NCBI GenBank assembly: GCA_016934855.1
Contig: JAFGSA010000066.1
Coordinates: forward strand, 1 to 41,823
Source: Elusimicrobiota bacterium
GTDB taxonomy: Bacteria; CG03; SLGR01; JAFGSA01
Reading direction: 5' to 3'
DNA length: 41,823 nt
Position numbers and translations under genes: made by a program. The notes under the pieces are model-generated. The model saw nothing but the letters and a program-made list of their open reading frames with translations. It did not search any database and was not told the DNA's origin. This document shows positions 3,376-24,262 of this stretch, piece after piece; the stretch's first letter is position 1; each line of letters opens with the position of its first letter.

Positions 3376-4868
3376 AGAAATATATTATAGTGCTGGGCAT
3401 GTTTACCGTGATGGCTTCATGTGCCGGAAGCTCTGATACGGGCAATGCCGGGACGAGGAAAGCGGCGGTAGCGGGGCAGTTCTATCCGGGAAATCCTGAC
3501 GTCCTCATGAAAGATGTCGATGCTTTCCTGGATACCGAAGTAAAAGAAGAACTCGGGGATGCGCATATAATGGGCATAATAGTGCCGCATGCCGGGTATA
3601 TGTATTCCGGCGCTACGGCGGGCCGGGTTTTTGCTTATTTGAAGAACAGGGGCTACGGTACAGTTATCCTTATGGGATCAAGTCATAACGTATACCTGGA
3701 CAAGCCTGTCACATGTTCGTTCGGCGATTGGGCGACACCCCTTGGAAAAGTTAAAGAAGATTATAAGCTAGTTGACGATATAGTAAAATATACAGGTATA
3801 TATATAAATAATAAAGTATTCGTGCCGGAGCATTCCCTGGAAGTTGAATTGCCTTTCCTGCAGAGGGTGCTGAAAGATGATTTTTCTATTGTCCCTATAC
3901 TTGTAAATGAGTTCAGGGAACAGAAACTCAGGGACTATGCCGCAGGGATATCCAGGGTGATAGGCCGGGGAAAAGGAATACTGATAGTGATGTCAACGGA
4001 TATGTCCCACTATTTTCCCGCCCGTACAGCAGCCGTCATGGATAAAAAGGTTTCCGATGCCCTCGTAAGATATGACCTGGAATCCCTTGAAAGGATAATG
4101 ACGGACAAATCCGGGCAGTTATGCGGCTGCGGCGCGGTTATGCTGGGTCTTATGACGCTCAGGAACCTGGGAGCCGACACGGTTGTGCAGGTAGATTATT
4201 CCCACTCGGGCGCGGCCACCGGAGACAACTCCAGGGTTGTCGGGTACGGGGCGTACGCAGTATATAAAAAAGAAGGAGTTGACGAATACGGACAGGAGGA
4301 AAAAATGGGATATACAAAAGAACAGAAGACAGAACTCCTGAAGCTTGCGAGAAATACGATACAGACATATGTCAAAACAGGAAGGACACTGCCGGCGGTA
4401 ACGGAAGACAAAGAACTCAGAGAACGCCGCGGGGTATTCGTAACGCTTCATAAAAAAGGGCAGCTCAGGGGCTGTATAGGGAACATATTCCCCGTTAACG
4501 AGCTGTATACCGCGGTCAGGGACATGGCTATAGAGGCTGCTGTGCATGATCCGCGGTTTTATCCTGTGACGGAAGACGAGCTCGATAAGATAGACATAGA
4601 AATATCCGTACTTACGGTGCCGGAAGAAGTAGATTCGCCGGACGAGATAGTAATGGGCCGGGACGGTGTCATAGTAAAGAAAGGGTTCAGGCAGGGTGTT
4701 TACCTTCCTCAGGTCGCTGATGAGACAGGCTGGAGCAGGGATGAGTTTTTAAGCAGCCTGTGCCATTCAAAAGCCGGGTTGCCGCCGGATGCATGGCAAC
4801 AGAAGGATACTACCCTTATGACGTTTCAGGCTGAGGTTTTTAACGAAAAGGAGCTGGGAATAAAATGA
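3372..4868 (+). CDS. Fusion of a Memo-like protein (AmmeMemoRadiSam system protein B) and an AMMECR1 domain (system protein A), with an N-terminal lipoprotein-type signal peptide
   Basis: AGQFYPG and IVPHAGYMYSG are Memo hallmarks. RGVFVTLHKKGQLRGCIGN is the AMMECR1 motif. The N-terminus MKKYIIVLGMFTVMASC contains a lipobox-like MASC. AGAGGTG lies upstream of the ATG. Confidence 0.8.
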   Translation: MKKYIIVLGMFTVMASCAGSSDTGNAGTRKAAVAGQFYPGNPDVLMKDVDAFLDTEVKEELGDAHIMGIIVPHAGYMYSGATAGRVFAYLKNRGYGTVILMGSSHNVYLDKPVTCSFGDWATPLGKVKEDYKLVDDIVKYTGIYINNKVFVPEHSLEVELPFLQRVLKDDFSIVPILVNEFREQKLRDYAAGISRVIGRGKGILIVMSTDMSHYFPARTAAVMDKKVSDALVRYDLESLERIMTDKSGQLCGCGAVMLGLMTLRNLGADTVVQVDYSHSGAATGDNSRVVGYGAYAVYKKEGVDEYGQEEKMGYTKEQKTELLKLARNTIQTYVKTGRTLPAVTEDKELRERRGVFVTLHKKGQLRGCIGNIFPVNELYTAVRDMAIEAAVHDPRFYPVTEDELDKIDIEISVLTVPEEVDSPDEIVMGRDGVIVKKGFRQGVYLPQVADETGWSRDEFLSSLCHSKAGLPPDAWQQKDTTLMTFQAEVFNEKELGIK

Positions 4869-5206
4869 AAAAAACAATATGCGGGATTATTATATTCATG
4901 TTTTTTTGCGGATGCAGCAGTATGCCTAAAAGAAACCTGGCGACCGAATCAGGTATCATCGCCGCAAATTTCAATATTGAAGAAGAAGAAGTTGTATCAT
5001 TGAGGGAAAAGGGGTTCGATACAGGGGAGATAGTGAAGATACTTATAATATCAGAGGGATCCTATCTCGGGCAGGGAGAAATACTCATGATGGTAGAAGA
5101 GGGCAAATCTTTCGAAGAAATAGGAAAAAAAGCCGGTATCGATACAGAGACACTTCAGCAGAGGTCGGATAAGATAGAGAAAAACCTCGCTAAATACTCA
5201 AGATAA
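4865..5206 (+). CDS. Small hypothetical lipoprotein of 113 aa
   Basis: The N-terminus MKKTICGIIIFMFFCGCSS has a lipobox FCGC. An internally repeated acidic helix-like segment is present. Its ATG overlaps the upstream stop (ATGA). Confidence 0.5.
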   Translation: MKKTICGIIIFMFFCGCSSMPKRNLATESGIIAANFNIEEEEVVSLREKGFDTGEIVKILIISEGSYLGQGEILMMVEEGKSFEEIGKKAGIDTETLQQRSDKIEKNLAKYSR

Positions 5207-12032: not shown

Positions 12033-13041
12033 CATAGCTGTTCTGGGCGCCGGCAGCTGGGGAATAACCCTGGCTAATGTCCTGTATGAGAACGGCAATA
12101 CAGTTATATTATGGGAATTCGACAGGAAGCAGGCTGCGAATCTTACAAGAGAAAGGAAATTCCTGACGCTGGGAAGCTACAGGATACCCGCTGGGATAAC
12201 CGTTACCGATTCCATGAGGAGGGCAGTGGAGGCCGCGGATTACATTGTCATTTCAGTGCCTTCGTCCGTTGTAGGCTCCGTTATCGGCGAACTTAGCAGG
12301 CAGAAACTCCGGCCCGGTGTCACAGTCGTAAGCAGCGTAAAAGGCTTTGATCAGAAAACACTTAAAAGGCCGTCTCAGATAATAAAAGGGATGCTTGGAA
12401 GAAAGGCGAACGTGGCGGTCATATCGGGCCCGAGCCACGCCGAAGAAGTAATAAAGAGGGTCCCTACGGCCGTCGTTGCCGCTTCCGTTGACAATAAGAC
12501 CAGGACGCATGTCCAGAAGCTCTTTTCAAATCTCTACTTCAGGGTATATTCGTCTTCCGATATAAACGGAGTGGAACTGGGCGGAGCCCTTAAGAATATA
12601 ATAGGAATAGCATCAGGTATAGTGAGCGGGCTGAAACTGGGCGATAATACCCGGGCGGCCCTTATAACCAGGGGAAATGCCGAGATAACCAGGCTTGGTG
12701 CAAGGCTTGGCGCGAGATCGGGGACTTTCAGCGGATTATCGGGAATAGGAGATTTGATAGTCACGTGCTTTTCGCATCATTCTCGTAATTTCAGGTTCGG
12801 GAAACTCATAGGAGAAGGCAGCAGCATGGATGAGGCGCTCCGCAAGATAAAAACAACGGTCGAGGGCATAAATACGACCAGGAGCTGCTACAGGCTGTCC
12901 CGAAAGCTAGGTGTTCAGATGCCTGTATGCGGCAAGGTGTATGAAATACTCTACAGGAAGAAAGAACCCGAAAAGGCCTGGAGGGAGCTTATGAGCAGGC
13001 CTTTAAAGAGCGAGAAAACGTTCCGCGATTACCGGGATTAA
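12007..13041 (+). CDS. gpsA: NAD(P)H-dependent glycerol-3-phosphate dehydrogenase
   Basis: IAVLGAGSWG NAD-binding motif and a full-length GpsA-like protein. Confidence 0.9.
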   Translation: MEMKKDRYNIAVLGAGSWGITLANVLYENGNTVILWEFDRKQAANLTRERKFLTLGSYRIPAGITVTDSMRRAVEAADYIVISVPSSVVGSVIGELSRQKLRPGVTVVSSVKGFDQKTLKRPSQIIKGMLGRKANVAVISGPSHAEEVIKRVPTAVVAASVDNKTRTHVQKLFSNLYFRVYSSSDINGVELGGALKNIIGIASGIVSGLKLGDNTRAALITRGNAEITRLGARLGARSGTFSGLSGIGDLIVTCFSHHSRNFRFGKLIGEGSSMDEALRKIKTTVEGINTTRSCYRLSRKLGVQMPVCGKVYEILYRKKEPEKAWRELMSRPLKSEKTFRDYRD

Positions 13042-13068
13042 GGCGTAATATCAGGGAGGAAAACGGTT

Positions 13069-13335
13069 ATGAATAAGAACGAGATAATAGAAAACGTTTC
13101 GAGTGTCACCTGTGCAAAAAGCGAGGCTAAGGATGCGGTAGAGATGTTCATTAAAACTATTAAGGAAGCCCTGAAAAGCGGCGACAGGGTGACAATATCA
13201 GAATTGGGATCGTTTTACGTAAAATTTAAGAAAGCCAGAAAAGGACGCAATCCCATGACCGGAGAAATAATTGACATAGCACCCAGAAAAGTTGTAAAAT
13301 TTACGCCGTCTCCCAAGTTAAACGACATATTATGA
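13069..13335 (+). CDS. hup: DNA-binding protein HU
   Basis: 88 aa with the RKGRNPMTGEII arm motif. Confidence 0.9.
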   Translation: MNKNEIIENVSSVTCAKSEAKDAVEMFIKTIKEALKSGDRVTISELGSFYVKFKKARKGRNPMTGEIIDIAPRKVVKFTPSPKLNDIL

Positions 13336-13336
13336 T

Positions 13337-13687
13337 ATGAATAAAAAGTATTTTACAATCAGCGAGGTCTCGAATATAACCGAAATACCTTCGCATACCC
13401 TGAGATACTGGGAGTCCGAATTCAAACTCCTGAGGCCCATGCGAAGGGAAAGCGGGCAGAGACGCTATACTCAGCATGACATACATACGATAGAAAAGAT
13501 AAAGGTGCTGCTATACGAAAAAAAATACAGCATAGCCGGGGCAAAAAAACAGTTAATGAAGGAAAAGAGGCAGACGGGCAGCCAGATAGAGATGGATTTG
13601 AACTCAGCGGGCAATATCACCGACGAGCTTAAATCCGTAAAAGAAAGCCTTCTTGAAATTAAGAAAATTCTCTCTGAAGAGATTTAG
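13337..13687 (+). CDS. MerR-family transcriptional regulator
   Basis: N-terminal helix-turn-helix (YFTISEVSNITEIPSHTLRYWESEF) and a C-terminal coiled coil. Confidence 0.8.
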   Translation: MNKKYFTISEVSNITEIPSHTLRYWESEFKLLRPMRRESGQRRYTQHDIHTIEKIKVLLYEKKYSIAGAKKQLMKEKRQTGSQIEMDLNSAGNITDELKSVKESLLEIKKILSEEI

Positions 13688-13691
13688 CAGA

Positions 13692-13766
<75 letters not shown>

Positions 13767-13828
13767 GAAATCACCAGGTGAGGTATAAAGGGGATCGAAG
13801 GGAAATAGCCGCTCCCTGAGGGAGAAGA

Positions 13829-13943
13829 GGCCGGAGGCCGGAAGGTTATTTCCCCGGCTCCGAGAGAGCAGGAGAAAGGGGAGCGAACGAGGAGTATCCC
13901 CGTCTCCCCTGCACCGCGAGGGGCGCAGGGCGCGGCCGCTCCA
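13829..13943 (+). repeat. Repeat unit B: U block (~13829-13898) fused to a tRNA-Gly 3'-end copy (atccccgtctccc...gctccagaaatc). A 28-nt hairpin-forming insert interrupts the acceptor-strand copy
   Basis: atccccgtctccc and gctccagaaatc match the last nucleotides of tRNA-Gly, including 7 nt of its 3' flank. The insert cctgcaccgcgaggggcgcagg can form a CCTGC/GCAGG stem. Confidence 0.55.
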
Positions 13944-14030
13944 GAAATCTCAGAGTGAGAGATATATTAGGGGATAGAAGCCTTACGCGCGCATGCTGAG
14001 CATAAAAAGCACGGAGTGCGAAGGCAGATA

Positions 14031-14120
14031 AGGCCGGCTCCGAGAGAGCAGGAGAAAAGGGGCGAGCGAGGAGTATCCCCGTTTCCCCTGCACCACACGG
14101 GATGCAGGACACGGCCGCTA
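14031..14120 (+). repeat. Repeat unit C: a second U block plus a diverged tRNA-Gly 3'-end copy. It is about 85% identical to unit B over ~65 nt
   Basis: ggccggctccgagagagcaggagaaaaggggcgagcgaggagtatccccgtttcccctgcacc. The CCTGC/GCAGG stem is conserved with a different loop (accacacgggat). Confidence 0.55.
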
Positions 14121-14126
14121 CATGAA

Positions 14127-14212
14127 TTTAGTTGAAGGTTGAATGTGGAAAGTGGAAAGTTGCTTGGTAAGGAAGAATTTCATTTAACATTACACTTTCC
14201 ATATTAAACTGT
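14127..14212 (+). repeat. E2 repeat copy 2, immediately upstream of tRNA-Pro(GGG). It probably contains the tRNA promoter
   Basis: Homologous to 86-170. It includes the TTACAC-like block attacactttccatatt. Confidence 0.5.
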
Positions 14213-14219
14213 ATGGGGT

Positions 14220-14296
14220 CGGGATGTGGCGCAGTCTGGAAGCGCACTCGTCTGGGGGGCGAGGGGTCGCCAGTTCAAATCTGGCCATCCCGACCA
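14220..14296 (+). tRNA. tRNA-Pro (anticodon GGG), with encoded CCA
   Basis: Acceptor CGGGATG/CATCCCG, D arm GCGC-AGTCTGGAA-GCGC, anticodon stem CTCGT/GCGAG with loop CTGGGGG, T arm GGGTC/GCCAG? It folds as GGGTC-GCCAG with T-loop TTCAAAT and 3' strand CTGGC. Confidence 0.8.
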
Positions 14297-14488
14297 TTCT
14301 TTGTACCGCTGGCAGCGGAAACATGCCCGGCAGAGGACCATCCATCACGGTCATCAGAGAAAAACCCGCAAAAAAGGCCGGAAACCCGGAGAAAACACCT
14401 TCCGAAGGCCGGATATACCGGGATTTGACAGGCACATATTAAAATGCTAGAATAAAAAAGGATTATTGGGAATATTCTGTATAACAAG

Positions 14489-16078
14489 ATGCAGAAATTA
14501 CTTAACCAGAACATCAAAAAGATACTTGTCGTTGAAGACGATGAGCTCATCAATAACACCATCGTGGACTGCCTTAAGGTTGAAGGATTCAACACCGATT
14601 ATACCGATGACGCCGAGAAGGCTCTTTGGCTGATAAATTATAACGCGTACGATCTGGTCATAACTGACTTGAAACTGCCGGGATTGAGCGGTATGGACAT
14701 CGTAAAAGCTGTGAAAAAGAAGGATCCTTCATGCAGGACAATAATAATCACTGCGTACGGCACGATTGATTCCCAGGTCGAAGCCATTAAGGCGGGTGCG
14801 GAAGATTTTATAATAAAACCCTTCAATATAGAGGAGTTCACCGCGAAGATCGCGGGGTGCATGAAAAAACCCGCTAAAACCGTTCCCGGAGACGAAAACC
14901 GCAAAAAGAACATACTTAAAAAGACGAAAGAAAAAACCGGTGAGCTGGTGTTATACACGAATCTTAATATCCTCATGGAATATGCATGCGATCTGCTCGA
15001 GGCGCAGGGGGGATCTCTTTTGCTGAACAAGGAAGGGTTCCTTGAAGTCAAGGCTGTTTCGGACGCTTTCCGCGACGATCTGTTGGGAAAAAAGGTGTCT
15101 CCGGAAGGCGGTATCTTCTGTGAAGTAATAAAGGCCGGGAAACCACTTCTTATCACAGAAGATATTAATAATGTTTTCTTTAACGGTTTCAGGGAATCTG
15201 CCAAAGTCAACAGCTGCATCTGTATCCCGATCTCAGACAAAGACAGGTGTTTCGGGCTTCTCAACCTCTGCAGGACAGGAGAGAACTATTTCAACAGCGA
15301 AGACCTGGAAGTTGCCGGATATTTTTCGGACAACATACTTACTGCCATAAGAGCCAGCGAAGCCGAAGCCGAGCTGGAGAAAGCAAAGAACAGCCTGGAG
15401 ATATCAAGCAGGCAGCTGGAGGCTTTTACCAAGGCGGCTGCTAACGACCTCCAGGAACCTTTGCGCCGGGTGGTCAGCTTCCTTCAGCTTATCGAAACAA
15501 GATACAAGGACAAACTCGATGCAAGCGGAAGCGAATTCATCGAGTATGCCGTGAGCGGCGCAAAGCTGATGAAGACCATGGTGGAGAGGCTCCTGGAATA
15601 TTCCAAGCTGGGGAGAAAGGATTCACCGACGGAAGAAGTTGATTTTAACGCGGTACTGGACCAGGTAAAGAGCATGTTCGGGCCGGAAATAAAGGCTGCC
15701 GAGGCGGAAGTAGTCGCGGATGTCCTGCCCGTAATGGAGCTTAACAGGGCGGATATCCATCATCTTTTCAAGCACCTGTTATCGAATTCCATAAATTTCA
15801 GGGGAGACGAAAAACTGGAGATCACCGTATCTGCTATGGATAACGGGAAAGAATGGTATTTCTGCGTCAAAGATAACGGGATGGGATTCAATATGAAGGA
15901 TAAGGAAAAGATATTCGGGATGTTCAACCGCCTGTATGAGCAGAAAATACTCAGCCAGACCGGGATGGGGCTTGCCATATGCAAAAAGATAATAGAGAAC
16001 GCGGGAGGAAAGATATGGGCCGAATCCGTAATCGGGGAGGGGACTTCCATATATTTTACTATACCTCACAAAAAGTAA
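14489..16078 (+). CDS. Hybrid signalling protein REC-GAF-HisKA-HATPase. The H-box histidine is replaced by asparagine
   Basis: REC domain (ILVVEDDE...DLVITDLKLPG...IKPF); GAF domain; DHp domain FTKAAANDLQEPLRRV versus the consensus sHELRTPL; catalytic N box (HHLFKHLLSNSINF), G1 (DNGMGF) and G2 (GMGLA). Confidence 0.8.
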   Translation: MQKLLNQNIKKILVVEDDELINNTIVDCLKVEGFNTDYTDDAEKALWLINYNAYDLVITDLKLPGLSGMDIVKAVKKKDPSCRTIIITAYGTIDSQVEAIKAGAEDFIIKPFNIEEFTAKIAGCMKKPAKTVPGDENRKKNILKKTKEKTGELVLYTNLNILMEYACDLLEAQGGSLLLNKEGFLEVKAVSDAFRDDLLGKKVSPEGGIFCEVIKAGKPLLITEDINNVFFNGFRESAKVNSCICIPISDKDRCFGLLNLCRTGENYFNSEDLEVAGYFSDNILTAIRASEAEAELEKAKNSLEISSRQLEAFTKAAANDLQEPLRRVVSFLQLIETRYKDKLDASGSEFIEYAVSGAKLMKTMVERLLEYSKLGRKDSPTEEVDFNAVLDQVKSMFGPEIKAAEAEVVADVLPVMELNRADIHHLFKHLLSNSINFRGDEKLEITVSAMDNGKEWYFCVKDNGMGFNMKDKEKIFGMFNRLYEQKILSQTGMGLAICKKIIENAGGKIWAESVIGEGTSIYFTIPHKK

Positions 16079-23819: not shown

Positions 23820-23897
23820 CGGGGTGTGGCTCAGTTTGGCTAGAGCACTCGGTTCGGGACCGAGAGGCCGTCGGTTCAAATCCGACCACCCCGACCA
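23820..23897 (+). tRNA. tRNA-Pro (anticodon CGG), with encoded CCA
   Basis: Acceptor CGGGGTG/CACCCCG, D arm GCTC-AGTTTGGCTA-GAGC, anticodon stem CTCGG/CCGAG with loop TTCGGGA, T arm GTCGG-TTCAAAT-CCGAC. Confidence 0.85.
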
Positions 23898-23928
23898 TGC
23901 TGTCTGATTGAAACGACGGCCAAAAAGG

Positions 23929-23952
23929 TCCGGAAAAAGTTATTTTTCCGGA
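23929..23952 (+). terminator. Perfect 10-bp hairpin (tccggaaaaa-gtta-tttttccgga) downstream of tRNA-Pro(CGG). Probable terminator or processing signal
   Basis: An exact inverted repeat whose 3' arm supplies the U-run. Confidence 0.5.
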
Positions 23953-23958
23953 TATATG

Positions 23959-24086
23959 CGGGGTGACAGCGACCCCGATGTTTTGTTTTGCAGAGCAAGA
24001 ATATCGGGGGAAGCGCAAGAGGGGCGGTCGAGCCCCTATTGGGAGCGGGAGCGACGCCGTGGGTTCAAATCCGACCACCCCTACCA
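23959..24086 (+). repeat. A ~128-nt unit that begins with the tRNA-Pro 5' acceptor heptamer (cggggtg) and ends with a 26-nt copy of the tRNA-Pro(CGG) 3' end (gggttcaaatccgaccacccctacca, one mismatch). It is a degenerate repeat unit, not a functional tRNA
   Basis: 24061-24086 matches 23872-23897 at 25 of 26 positions. The interior has no D or anticodon arms. It contains a diverged U-like segment (gagcgggagcga). Confidence 0.55.
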
Positions 24087-24183
24087 TGAACCACGGGGGG
24101 GCATGGTATGCCAGGTTCATGAGTAAATATATAAAAGAGGATTTGAAAGGAAATCATCGCTCACAGTGTGAGATGAGGCCGTA

Positions 24184-24262
24184 GGCCGGAAGAGGATTTC
24201 CCCGACTTCGAGTGAGCGGGAGGATAGGAAGTGAATGAGAAGAAATCCGACCACCCCGACCA
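24184..24262 (+). repeat. Repeat unit D: U block (~24184-24248) fused to a 20-nt exact copy of the tRNA-Pro(CGG) 3' end (aaatccgaccaccccgacca, 24243-24262)
   Basis: ggccggaagaggatttccccgacttcgagtgagcgggagg aligns to ggccggaaggttatttccccggctccgagagagcaggag of unit B. Its 3' end merges with the T-loop/acceptor copy. Confidence 0.55.

Follow-up and report, generated by a model that had tools for sequence, protein, structure and literature searches.

Tandem units behind tRNA genes of an Elusimicrobia contig resemble the tRNA-linked repeats of E. coli

Results

Units at three tRNA-linked loci

The tandem units that follow tRNA-Gly(CCC) in this Elusimicrobia contig are probably, judging by their sequence and predicted fold, an Elusimicrobia form of the tRNA-linked repeats (TLRs), to which the RtT RNA (rttR) of E. 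coli also belongs. The window, meaning the whole contig of 41,823 nucleotides (42 kb) that was analysed, holds units at three loci: two behind tRNA-Gly(CCC), one (plus a decayed tRNA copy) in the array headed by tRNA-Pro(CGG), and at least one at the contig start (Table 1). Each full unit consists of a module of ~125 nt and, at its end, a copy of the last 18–20 nt of a tRNA, running from T-loop base 57/58 to CCA. A sequence-only reading of this DNA had found no described class that fits the units; in anatomy they match the tRNA-linked repeats and RtT RNA described in E. coli (PMC8144298).

Table 1. Coordinates of the tRNA genes, units and unit parts in the window.
Feature	Positions	Strand	Basis
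3' part of a further unit, 5' side cut by contig start	1-85	+	R1 match 1-79, E = 0.0017, model positions 50-127
tRNA-Gly(CCC), CCA encoded	13692-13766	+	ARAGORN; Rfam tRNA 65.5 bits
tRNA-Gly(CCC) T-loop and 3' T-stem strand, TTCGATCCCC	13744-13753	+	
GlyU1 (unit 1), 177 nt	13767-13943	+	sequence, repeats, inverted repeats I4 and I5, model R1, pair counts
GlyU1 leader hairpin TCAC-CAG-GTGA	13771-13781	+	
GlyU1 TATAAA	13784-13789	+	
GlyU1 anti-T-loop GGGGATCGAA	13790-13799	+	
GlyU1 P1	13800-13810 with 13844-13854	+	
GlyU1 P2	13812-13816 with 13820-13824	+	
GlyU1 P3	13829-13832 with 13836-13839	+	
GlyU1 linker, purine-rich	13855-13894	+	
GlyU1 tRNA copy	13896-13908	+	
GlyU1 28-nt hairpin insert	13909-13936	+	
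GlyU1 end CGCTCCA	13937-13943	+	
GlyU2 (unit 2), 179 nt	13944-14122	+	sequence, repeats, pair counts, model R1
GlyU2 anti-T-loop GGGGATAGAA	13970-13979	+	
GlyU2 P1	13980-13990 with 14024-14034	+	
GlyU2 P2	13992-13996 with 14000-14004	+	
GlyU2 P3	14009-14012 with 14016-14019	+	
GlyU2 tRNA copy ATCCCCGTTTCCC	14075-14087	+	
GlyU2 28-nt insert	14088-14115	+	
GlyU2 end CGCTACA (CCA to ACA mutation)	14116-14122	+	
AT-rich hairpin, 7-nt periodicity	14131-14209	+	inverted repeat I1, 24-nt arms
tRNA-Pro(GGG), 3' partner of tRNA-Gly in conserved Gly-Pro pair	14220-14296	+	ARAGORN, Rfam
tRNA-Pro(CGG), heads second array	23820-23897	+	
First segment behind tRNA-Pro(CGG), outside unit family	23898-24086	+	no R1 match
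Inverted T-arm copy in first Pro segment	~23901-23921	+	
Hairpin in first Pro segment, also behind tRNA-Pro in L015	23928-23953	+	BLAST
Decayed tRNA-Pro copy riddled with insertions	~23958-24086	+	global alignment to tRNA
ProU2, related unit	24087-24262	+	sequence; BLAST; R1 135 bits; pair counts
ProU2 first hairpin CATGAACC...GGTTCATG, then TATAAAA	within 24087-24262	+	
ProU2 anti-T-loop GGATTTGAA	24139-24147	+	complement of TTCAAATCC at 24064-24072
ProU2 P1	24148-24158 with 24192-24202	+	
ProU2 P2	24160-24164 with 24168-24172	+	
ProU2 P3	24177-24180 with 24184-24187	+	
ProU2 linker	24203-24242	+	
ProU2 end AAATCCGACCACCCCGACCA, the tRNA-Pro(CGG) 3' end, 20/20 identical	24243-24262	+	BLAST

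GlyU1 begins at the base directly after the tRNA-Gly CCA, and GlyU1 and GlyU2 stand head-to-tail, as the sequence-only reading had described, with a start-to-start spacing of 179/180 nt. A repeat search gave identities of 81% over 69 nt and 71% over 66 nt, and by BLASTN the two units are 87% identical over 90 nt (E = 3.5e-25); together with the block CCGGCTCCGAGAGAGCAGGAGAAA, which occurs exactly twice (13854 and 14034) against 0 expected (100 shuffles), this places their similarity above background. The ends had been put at ~13943 and ~14120, which is right for the first unit, while the second runs to 14122. The range given for the units had extended to 14219, and here the reading was mistaken, as 14123-14219 is a separate AT-rich hairpin. 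This hairpin is probably native spacer, separate from the units: a ~92% similar copy lies behind the contig-start unit (99-167; BLAST matches to 99-122 and 142-167), and the short Gly-Pro spacers of relatives contain heptamer hairpins. No terminator-like site was found on the plus strand between tRNA-Gly and tRNA-Pro.

The proposed copy of the tRNA-Gly 3' end at the end of each unit, starting in the T-loop, was borne out by repeats at 13896 and 14075. The stretch ATCCCCGTCTCCC, positions 58-70 of tRNA-Gly (13748-13760), is copied in GlyU1 and, with one change, in GlyU2, and CCGCTCCAGAAATC of tRNA-Gly is found again at 13936. The 28-nt insert reported in the acceptor copy is real; it divides the copies into 13 nt and 7 nt (with two substitutions in unit 2), and is present in both Gly units and missing from the Pro unit and from the unit of a second genome (L027, see below). 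Covariation had also been claimed for the CCTGC/GCAGG stem of the insert. The stem has the same sequence in both units, with a different loop plus one change from A.C to A-U, and this is therefore conservation, not covariation. Genuine covariation lies elsewhere in the unit, in parts on which the earlier reading was silent.

A coding role for the units was rejected. The only long ORF across them, on the minus strand (13846-14112, 88 aa), has 0 homologues among 5.8 billion proteins and is itself unrecorded, and the two units differ by 1-nt indels.

The sequence-only reading had also overlooked the family members at the contig start (1-85) and at 24087-24262. ProU2 is 75% identical to GlyU1 over 109 nt (BLAST, E = 7e-15). 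In the segment that separates it from its tRNA gene, the decayed tRNA-Pro copy retains CGGGGTG and GTTTTGCAGAGCA, which resembles a D-loop, as well as a 3' part of 36 nt with the whole T-loop, 91.7% identical to the tRNA (BLAST). The unit at the contig start holds the 3' sides of both P3 and P1, then the linker and a tRNA-like 3' end, the 19 nt AATCCTGCCGGGCGTACCA (67-85), which looks like the 3' end of a third tRNA; bases 73-107 recur at 197-231 with 94% identity (BLAST).

The units are mosaic, across loci and genomes alike. In its junction region GlyU1 shares 76% identity with ProU2 versus 47% with the neighbouring GlyU2, and between the linkers of the two Gly units identity is 90%. We take this as sequence-level evidence that modules have been exchanged between loci.

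A shared fold with an anti-T-loop that tracks the tRNA

The four full units share one fold, in which a segment complementary to the T-loop (anti-T-loop) pairs with the terminal tRNA copy to form an outer helix (P0) around a three-way junction. P1 closes the junction, which carries the short hairpins P2 and P3, and the module is completed by a purine- and GGA-rich linker. Hairpins that present GGA recur in the units (GGCC-GGA-GGCC, GCAC-GGA-GTGC, GAGC-GGA-GCTC). In alignment A2, which like the fold is built on these four full units, the 27 pairs are 88.9% paired, versus 30–47% when the partners are slid by 1–3 columns; 15/27 pairs have changes on both sides, and none of five measures was reached in shuffled alignments (0/500). 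P0 is 92.9% paired with both-side changes in 3/7 pairs, and P1, P2 and P3 are 80–100% paired with both-side changes in 12/20. The hint at a structured RNA in the sequence-only reading is plausible. Since the compensatory changes all go from Watson-Crick to Watson-Crick, with one G.U pair only, the fold is just as compatible with the minus strand or with single-stranded DNA. R1, a covariance model made from the four units, matches GlyU1 at 13782-13908 (141 bits), GlyU2 at 13963-14087 (127 bits) and ProU2.

The anti-T-loop changes with the tRNA: GGGGATCGAA faces TTCGATCCCC at the Gly locus of the window, GGGAATCGAA faces TTCGATTCCC at the Gly locus of L027, and GGATTTGAA faces TTCAAATCC at the Pro locus. 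It forms 9–10 bp with the upstream T-loop, a better pairing than the 6–7 bp with the copy in its own unit, so that P0 is possibly not the relevant pairing. The 3' ends of the Gly units are unclean tRNA mimics, as a 28-nt hairpin sits inside the copy and unit 2 ends in ACA. Two other foldings were considered and set aside. An acceptor/T-arm minihelix formed by the 3' part of the unit holds in GlyU1 only and fails in ProU2, and pairing of the anti-T-loop with CGGCTCC beside P1, found in the RNAfold minimum free energy structure, is less consistent among units than P0.

Units and empty sites in related genomes

Another Elusimicrobia genome (L027) carries a unit behind its tRNA-Gly, 1.4 units in total. 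[quoted passage not shown] The sequence-only reading had suggested looking for empty sites in relatives, and these exist in most of the related genomes: the units are absent at L015, L018, L024 and L029–L035. The Gly-Pro tRNA pair recurs in relatives, and in eight related genomes its spacer is 17–92 nt long and without units. A scan for exact CCGRCTYCGAGWGAGCRGGAG, a pattern that is too strict for this family (the L027 unit departs from it at three positions), gave single matches in 7 genome contigs, 6 metagenome contigs and 0 viral contigs. We regard these as chance matches, since all lie in unrelated high-GC organisms and none has a tRNA in the locus.

Comparison with enterobacterial tRNA-linked repeats and other systems

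TLRs are defined by a 3' identity of 18–19 bp to the upstream tRNA or rRNA (PMC8144298; Rudd 1999). E. coli K-12 has 22 copies at 10 loci, with 1–5 per locus, for which there is no accepted function or origin (PMC8144298), and RtT copy number differs among Salmonella strains (PMC2658671). At E. coli tyrT/tyrV we found four matches to the Rfam family RF00391, each of which closes with the 19 final nt of tRNA-Tyr; the outer helix in Rfam is GGGGAAGGAU with AUCCUUCCCC. At proK of Salmonella and Klebsiella the matches end in the tRNA-Pro 3' end and have the antisense segment GAGGAU.

The units agree with this anatomy in several ways. They stand immediately 3' of a tRNA, on the same strand (Gly, Pro(CGG) and L027), at several loci with 1–5 units each (three loci on the contig; the 1.4 units of L027), and the terminal tRNA identity is 20/20 in ProU2 and L027, the copies of the Gly units being split by the insert. 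Both families form tandem arrays, with a period of ~170–178 nt in E. coli versus 142–179 nt here, and in both the copy is the last 18–20 nt of the upstream tRNA from T-loop base 57–59. When the units are set against the Rfam consensus structure, an outer antisense/copy helix surrounds a two-hairpin junction; an inner helix encloses both hairpins, and the copy is preceded by a purine-rich stretch (..GAGNA). The Elusimicrobia units (from a MAG of that phylum) differ from the enterobacterial ones in that their antisense segment reaches the 5' half of the T-loop (bases 54–57) rather than the acceptor strand, their linker is about twice as long, the Gly units have a 28-nt hairpin within the tRNA copy, and intrinsic terminators behind each CCA, as in Salmonella proK, are missing.

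Sequence similarity between the two families was not detected. RF00391, which scored 96–138 bits on E. coli, Salmonella and Klebsiella as positive controls, gave no match to the units at E <= 10 (13000-15000 and 13760-14130), none at E <= 1 on L027 and none at the gathering threshold (45 bits) over the whole window, and model R1 had no match at the enteric RtT loci. As each model is blind to the other family, we do not claim common descent with the E. coli TLRs, and the resemblance could be convergent. Look-alikes such as GAGCGAAGCGACGAATAATCC and GAGCGAACGAGGAGTATCC were rejected as signs of homology, as they are not collinear throughout. Other Rfam models at permissive thresholds gave noise only, e.g. 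miRNA and lncRNA models.

The 5S-linked TLRs RrA, RrB and RrF are trailers of stable-RNA operons, each finishing with a copy of the 3' end of the RNA before it (PMC8144298), and the units would be candidate trailers of this sort; Hfq/CsrA binding has been shown for E. coli RrB (PMC8144298). Like RrB, with its CCC-GGA-GGG, the units have a short hairpin that presents GGA and several GGA motifs. RrA, RrB and RrF differ in lying behind 5S rRNA between two terminators, and the antisense closing segment was not seen in rrB. A further likeness, in that the units too may be small RNAs from a tRNA trailer, is to the 3'ETS sRNAs (e.g. 3'ETS-leuZ of E. coli). These are set free when the trailer of a tRNA operon is processed together with its tRNAs and, unlike the units, are not known to carry a tRNA 3' copy or to be tandemly repeated.

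Discussion

Proposed mechanism

We consider it most likely that the units are trailer RNAs that are co-transcribed with the tRNA, matured like a tRNA 3' end and kept in arrays that recombine. The module would be transcribed as a tRNA trailer within the tRNA-Gly/tRNA-Pro operon, and the terminal copy would provide a tRNA-type 3' end to be cut and trimmed by the tRNA-finishing enzymes, so that a discrete and stable small RNA is left. The 18–20 nt at the end of every unit are also those at the end of the tRNA gene, which would allow unequal or inter-locus recombination to gain, lose and reshuffle units; arrays of 1–3 units, sites without them in relatives and mosaic units would be the outcome.

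Alternative explanations

An improbable alternative is that the units are scars or miniatures of tyrosine-integrase elements that target the T-loop, of which an attP arm and the tRNA 3' copy were left. The sequence-only reading had likened the units to an attR junction, and the likeness is partial. As in attL/attR sites of the T-loop class, the tRNA 3' part is directly repeated, from T-loop base 57/58 to CCA, and against the empty sites of related genomes the units stand out as insertions. Williams reportedly described in 2002 an identity block from T-loop to CCA as typical of T-loop-targeting integrases. In L032, moreover, a large serine recombinase gene abuts tRNA-Pro(CGG). What does not fit is that integrase, recombinase and mobile-element genes are all missing from the contig, where a Pfam scan of 28 ORFs found housekeeping, signalling and glycan genes only, and that the would-be element between the repeats is only ~125–160 nt long, folded, and common to different tRNA targets. 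One module sits on three tRNA ends, while a member of an integrase family normally has one target, and the 15 compensatory pairs and the segment that covaries with the tRNA would be needless in DNA arm sites. Similar sequences were not found in phage, plasmid or viral collections (BLAST of the units against phages and plasmids gave nothing meaningful). The E. coli TLRs that stand behind 5S rRNA with a copy of its 3' end are likewise beyond the reach of a T-loop integrase (PMC8144298).

We likewise give little credence to a non-autonomous tRNA-homing element, with guides like those of the IS110 bridge RNA and a recombinase encoded elsewhere in the genome. Such an element would account for the presence of units at at least three loci in 42 kb and their patchiness among relatives, for an antisense and a sense segment that address one target and follow it from tRNA to tRNA, and for the mosaic units; the unit size of 142–179 nt is near that of a bridge RNA. 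Assembly breaks point the same way: Logan contigs from the same sample end at both tRNAs (so that no variant alleles were seen), and the MAG contig begins inside a unit. Any repeat is expected to break contigs, however, and a recombinase was not seen, the contig having no IS110-type DEDD (RuvC-like)/Tnp gene. The two "guides" share their target bases and are paired together instead of lying in open loops, the tRNA copy sits at the extreme end of the unit through CCA and flank, as in a duplication, and unequal recombination of the 3' copies accounts for the arrays without transposition. Similar elements with other machinery were also set aside: a TnpB omega-RNA-like scaffold plus guide and an IS605-type MITE, as tnpB and TAM/hairpin-end anatomy are both missing, and tRNA-primed reverse transcription (minus-strand PBS), as there is no RT gene and a local duplication explains the copy better.

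That the units are decayed tandem duplicates of a tRNA gene and its spacer, without function of their own, is very improbable, even though 23958-24086 resembles a decayed tRNA-Pro copy, whole tRNA genes are duplicated in the E. coli tyrT/tyrV arrays, and the stretch TTCCCCGGCTCCG, made up of the 3' strand of P1 and the bases that follow, has 77% similarity to the 3' part of the tRNA: the module before the tRNA copy has no tRNA-like sequence, cloverleaf or Rfam tRNA match, it is 75% conserved between the Gly and Pro loci although those tRNAs differ, and its helices are retained through compensatory changes, which indicates selection, not decay.

Implications

A wider, rather unlikely reading is that modules of the TLR type form a structured class that spans phyla, being old or horizontally spread, and re-targets itself from one stable-RNA gene to another by co-evolving antisense and sense segments. 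If true, this would imply either a guide-like recognition of tRNA genes that drives insertion beside new tRNAs, or an RNA switch that acts in cis to control tRNA maturation or to back it up; in such a switch the antisense segment would sequester the tRNA 3' strand (9–10 bp with the upstream T-loop) and the downstream copy would substitute for it.

TLRs of E. coli have been known for almost fifty years; Egan and Landy reportedly described the 178-bp repeat of tyrT in 1978. A full-text literature search for the phrase "tRNA-linked repeats" returned work on E. coli only. The same anatomy without sequence similarity in a remote phylum speaks for a mechanism or selective advantage of a general kind and against an accident of the enterobacteria, and the Elusimicrobia family offers independent comparative evidence on the essential features that the E. 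coli family alone lacks. These features are a tRNA copy from base 57–59, an antisense partner that covaries with the tRNA, and a two-hairpin junction in which one hairpin usually presents GGA. They suggest a simple search rule that could open the long-standing question of these repeats to testing: an 18–20-nt copy of a tRNA 3' end 120–180 nt downstream of the gene with its reverse complement in between, which could chart such elements in all bacteria.

Tandem units behind tRNA-Gly and further copies

Upstream of tRNA-Gly(CCC) lies a housekeeping context (hflX, der, plsY, gpsA, an HU-family gene and a MerR-family gene), and the 453-nt spacer between this tRNA and tRNA-Pro(GGG) contains two head-to-tail units, GlyU1 and GlyU2, followed by an AT-rich hairpin. 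The sequence-only reading had described tandem units ending in tRNA-Gly 3' copies, and both points held. The similarity lies far above background (BLASTN E = 3.5e-25 between the units; one 24-mer and one 27-mer with 2 exact occurrences each in the window, against 0 expected), and each unit closes with ATCCCCGT(C/T)TCCC, a copy of tRNA bases 58-70, then a 28-nt hairpin and CGCTCCA (GlyU1) or CGCTACA (GlyU2). The tRNA's own 3' flank (GAAATC...) reappears behind GlyU1, unlike GlyU2, which is followed by the native spacer TGAATTT. The stem of the 28-nt insert, previously thought to covary, is identical in the aligned units and shows no covariation.

Positions of the features (contig coordinates unless a related locus is named)
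Feature	Position	Remark
Contig-start unit	1-79	truncated
35-nt direct repeat	73-107 / 197-231	94% identical; flanks first heptamer hairpin
Heptamer hairpins	94-175, 215-480	AT-rich
MerR-family protein	13337-13687
tRNA-Gly(CCC)	13692-13766
GlyU1	13767-13943	head-to-tail with GlyU2
GlyU2	13944-14122	head-to-tail with GlyU1
Heptamer hairpin	14131-14209	AT-rich; after GlyU2
tRNA-Pro(GGG)	14220-14296
tRNA-Pro(CGG)	23820-23897	ProU2 downstream
ProU2	24087-24262
Aligned junction regions	13800-13854, 13980-14034, 24148-24202; L027 6411-6467	GlyU1, GlyU2, ProU2, L027 unit
P3 GGA triloop hairpins	13829-13839, 14009-14019; L027 6441-6451
Heptamer hairpins in relatives	L015 5432-5493; L029 6594-6685	AT-rich

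A further unit, ProU2, is 75% identical to GlyU1 over 109 nt (BLAST E = 7e-15). Its last 20 nt reproduce the 3' end of tRNA-Pro, rather than of tRNA-Gly, without a mismatch. A fifth, truncated unit at the contig start was detected with a covariance model built from the units (E = 0.0017), and it terminates in a third tRNA-like 3' end (AATCCTGCCGGGCGTACCA, 67-85). Near the 5' end of each unit is an anti-T-loop segment that varies in step with the tRNA. In GlyU1 it is GGGGATCGAA (13790-13799), which perfectly complements the T-loop and stem of tRNA-Gly, TTCGATCCCC; at the Pro locus it is GGATTTGAA (24139-24147), the complement of TTCAAATCC; in the related Elusimicrobia locus L027 it is GGGAATCGAA, where tRNA-Gly has TTCGATTCCC. 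The segment's match to the T-loop upstream spans 9-10 bp, that to the copy in its own unit only 6-7 bp; conceivably, therefore, the tRNA's own 3' strand and the copy downstream of it are the two alternatives of a cis switch.

Other repeats surround these units. Directly after tRNA-Pro(CGG), within 23898-24086, come a slightly degenerate copy of its T-arm and variable region in inverted orientation (TGTCTGATTGAAACGACGGCC, ~23901-23921), a hairpin (23928-23953) also present behind tRNA-Pro(GGG) in L015, a related locus, and a ~130-nt cloverleaf-like, insertion-riddled tRNA-Pro copy that neither ARAGORN nor Rfam called. The 35-nt direct repeat holds the acceptor 3' strand, CCA and 22-nt flank of the contig-start tRNA-like end and is a second kind of duplication taking in a tRNA 3' end. 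The large AT-rich hairpins consist of runs of 7-nt repeats (AAGGTTG, ATTACAC, TAAGTTA, AGATGCC, ATAAGCT, CTTACAG). Those behind the Gly array and the contig-start unit are ~92% similar in both arms, and in relatives heptamer hairpins likewise occupy the short spacer between tRNA-Gly and tRNA-Pro. One possibility is a terminator or processing structure peculiar to this lineage, another is a separate repeat family.

A mosaic module with a conserved fold

The four full units (GlyU1, GlyU2, ProU2 and that of L027) align with 78% mean column identity. Their junction regions fall into two subtypes: GlyU1 is 76% identical to ProU2 at the other locus versus 47% to its neighbour GlyU2 (type A), and GlyU2 shares 70% identity with that of L027 (type B). 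As the subtypes follow neither locus nor genome, yet the adjacent Gly linkers are 90% identical, the alignment implies mosaic units between which modules have been exchanged.

On this alignment we tested a fold of four helices, in which P0 pairs the anti-T-loop segment with the start of the tRNA copy, P1 closes a three-way junction, and P2 and P3 are short hairpins. Across its 27 pairs, 88.9% of cells are paired, versus 30-47% with partners slid by 1-3 columns. Changes occur on both sides in 15 pairs and on one side in none, and 0/500 shuffles attained any of five fold measures. P3, for example, reads GGCC-GGA-GGCC, GCAC-GGA-GTGC, GAGC-GGA-GCTC or GGCC-GTA-GGCC. Although four sequences do not amount to a formal significance test, the pattern strongly supports selection for a fold in single-stranded form. 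As almost every pair is Watson-Crick, the fold is uninformative about the strand; only context and analogy favour the + (tRNA) strand as the functional one. The sole long ORF across the units, on the minus strand, had no homologue. The P3 triloop is GGA in 3/4 units, and the purine-rich linker has several additional GGA or AGGAG motifs.

Empty and occupied sites in relatives

Exact-protein look-ups of MerR homologues (65-72% identical) recovered the syntenic locus from about ten other Elusimicrobia genomes. In eight (L015, L018, L024, L029, L030, L032, L033, L035) the tRNA-Gly/tRNA-Pro gap is 17-92 nt and unit-free. L027 (JGI 3300033153) carries one full 142-nt unit, which closes with the 3' end of the local tRNA-Gly copied without change, and the first 59 nt of another (exact match over the 58 nt compared). 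By this comparison, the units are insertions or expansions with a patchy distribution, and the 28-nt hairpin, absent from the L027 unit, is a secondary feature of the Gly units in the window's genome. Units are recorded from two genomes; the pattern used for DNA scans of large collections was too strict.

In L032, a gene for a 537-aa large serine recombinase (3490-5103, minus strand; Resolvase, Recombinase and Zn_ribbon_recom domains) abuts tRNA-Pro(CGG) (3511-3588) or overlaps it, which suggests an integrated element at a tRNA that bears units in the window's genome. Two Logan contigs (L014 and L019, SRR13394437) with exact MerR and response-regulator proteins break at window ~13719 and ~23893, within tRNA-Gly and tRNA-Pro(CGG) or where these end, and the window contig's 5' end falls within a unit. 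These breaks suggest that units are numerous or variable enough to interrupt assemblies.

Comparison with enteric tRNA-linked repeats

At E. coli tyrT, a 178-bp unit is 'repeated 3.14 times'. The tyrT-tyrV-rttR region of MG1655 gave four matches (133-138 bits) to RF00391, the RtT RNA family of enteric tRNA-linked repeats (TLRs), each ending in the last 19 nt of tRNA-Tyr; annotated rttR (171 nt) terminates at the CCA of the copy. In the RF00391 consensus, an internal antisense segment (GGGGAAGGAU) pairs with the tRNA copy as the outer helix around a junction with two hairpins. In Salmonella and Klebsiella, the proK matches score 96-100 bits and terminate in the 3' end of tRNA-Pro instead; their antisense segment is GAGGAU. 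[quoted passage not shown] RtT copy number differs among strains of Salmonella (PMC2658671); according to a 2024 preprint, how RtT acts is still unknown (10.1101/2024.07.17.603846).

In position and architecture the units from Elusimicrobia agree throughout with the definition of a TLR, but RF00391 did not match them, nor did their covariance model match the enteric loci. We therefore file them, by anatomy, as TLR-like and outside RF00391, perhaps but not necessarily of common descent with the enteric repeats. The CCC-GGA-GGG hairpin of E. coli RrB (L039, the rrnB 3' region, 283-291) resembles P3, and the purine-rich linker and GGA triloop recall this CsrA-binding RNA. The 5S-linked rrB also shares a core hairpin and flank (AACGTTGC-GAAG-GCAACGGCCCGGAGGG) with tRNA-linked RtT units (L020, L022) and holds a sense/antisense T-loop-like pair (AAATCCGC...GCGGATTTGAA), as if derived from a tRNA-linked unit.

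Origin and proposed mechanism

Beyond the observation itself, now confirmed and extended, the sequence-only reading had likened the units to attR junctions of a tRNA-targeting integrative element. This fits in part: the T-loop boundary of the copy and the empty sites suit such scars, but contig gene scans found no recombinase, one module is common to three tRNAs, the fold is compensatory and E. coli has 5S-linked TLRs. With low probability, the units may be a guide-bearing, bridge-RNA-like mobile element, given antisense and sense segments to one target that both change with it, a patchy distribution and assemblies broken at arrays; against this, the antisense and sense segments are paired to one another, and a candidate enzyme is nowhere apparent. 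Mere decay of tRNA gene duplicates accounts for 23958-24086 only and leaves the conserved module unexplained.

Anatomy, fold, linkage to three tRNAs and the presence/absence pattern are observed; the remaining mechanism of these TLR-like units we infer. They would likely be transcribed as tRNA trailers; no terminator-like site was found on the + strand between tRNA-Gly and tRNA-Pro. Because the copy at the unit's end corresponds to the unbroken 3' strand of the acceptor/T-arm stack together with CCA, the nucleases that finish the tRNA should give the module a tRNA-type 3' end as well, as proposed for the 5S copy in RrB (PMC8144298). The repeated 18-20 nt would supply homology for unequal recombination, which would explain the arrays and their VNTR behaviour. 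By their anatomy, the units most likely represent an Rfam-invisible variant of TLRs, a kind of element already known and still unexplained.
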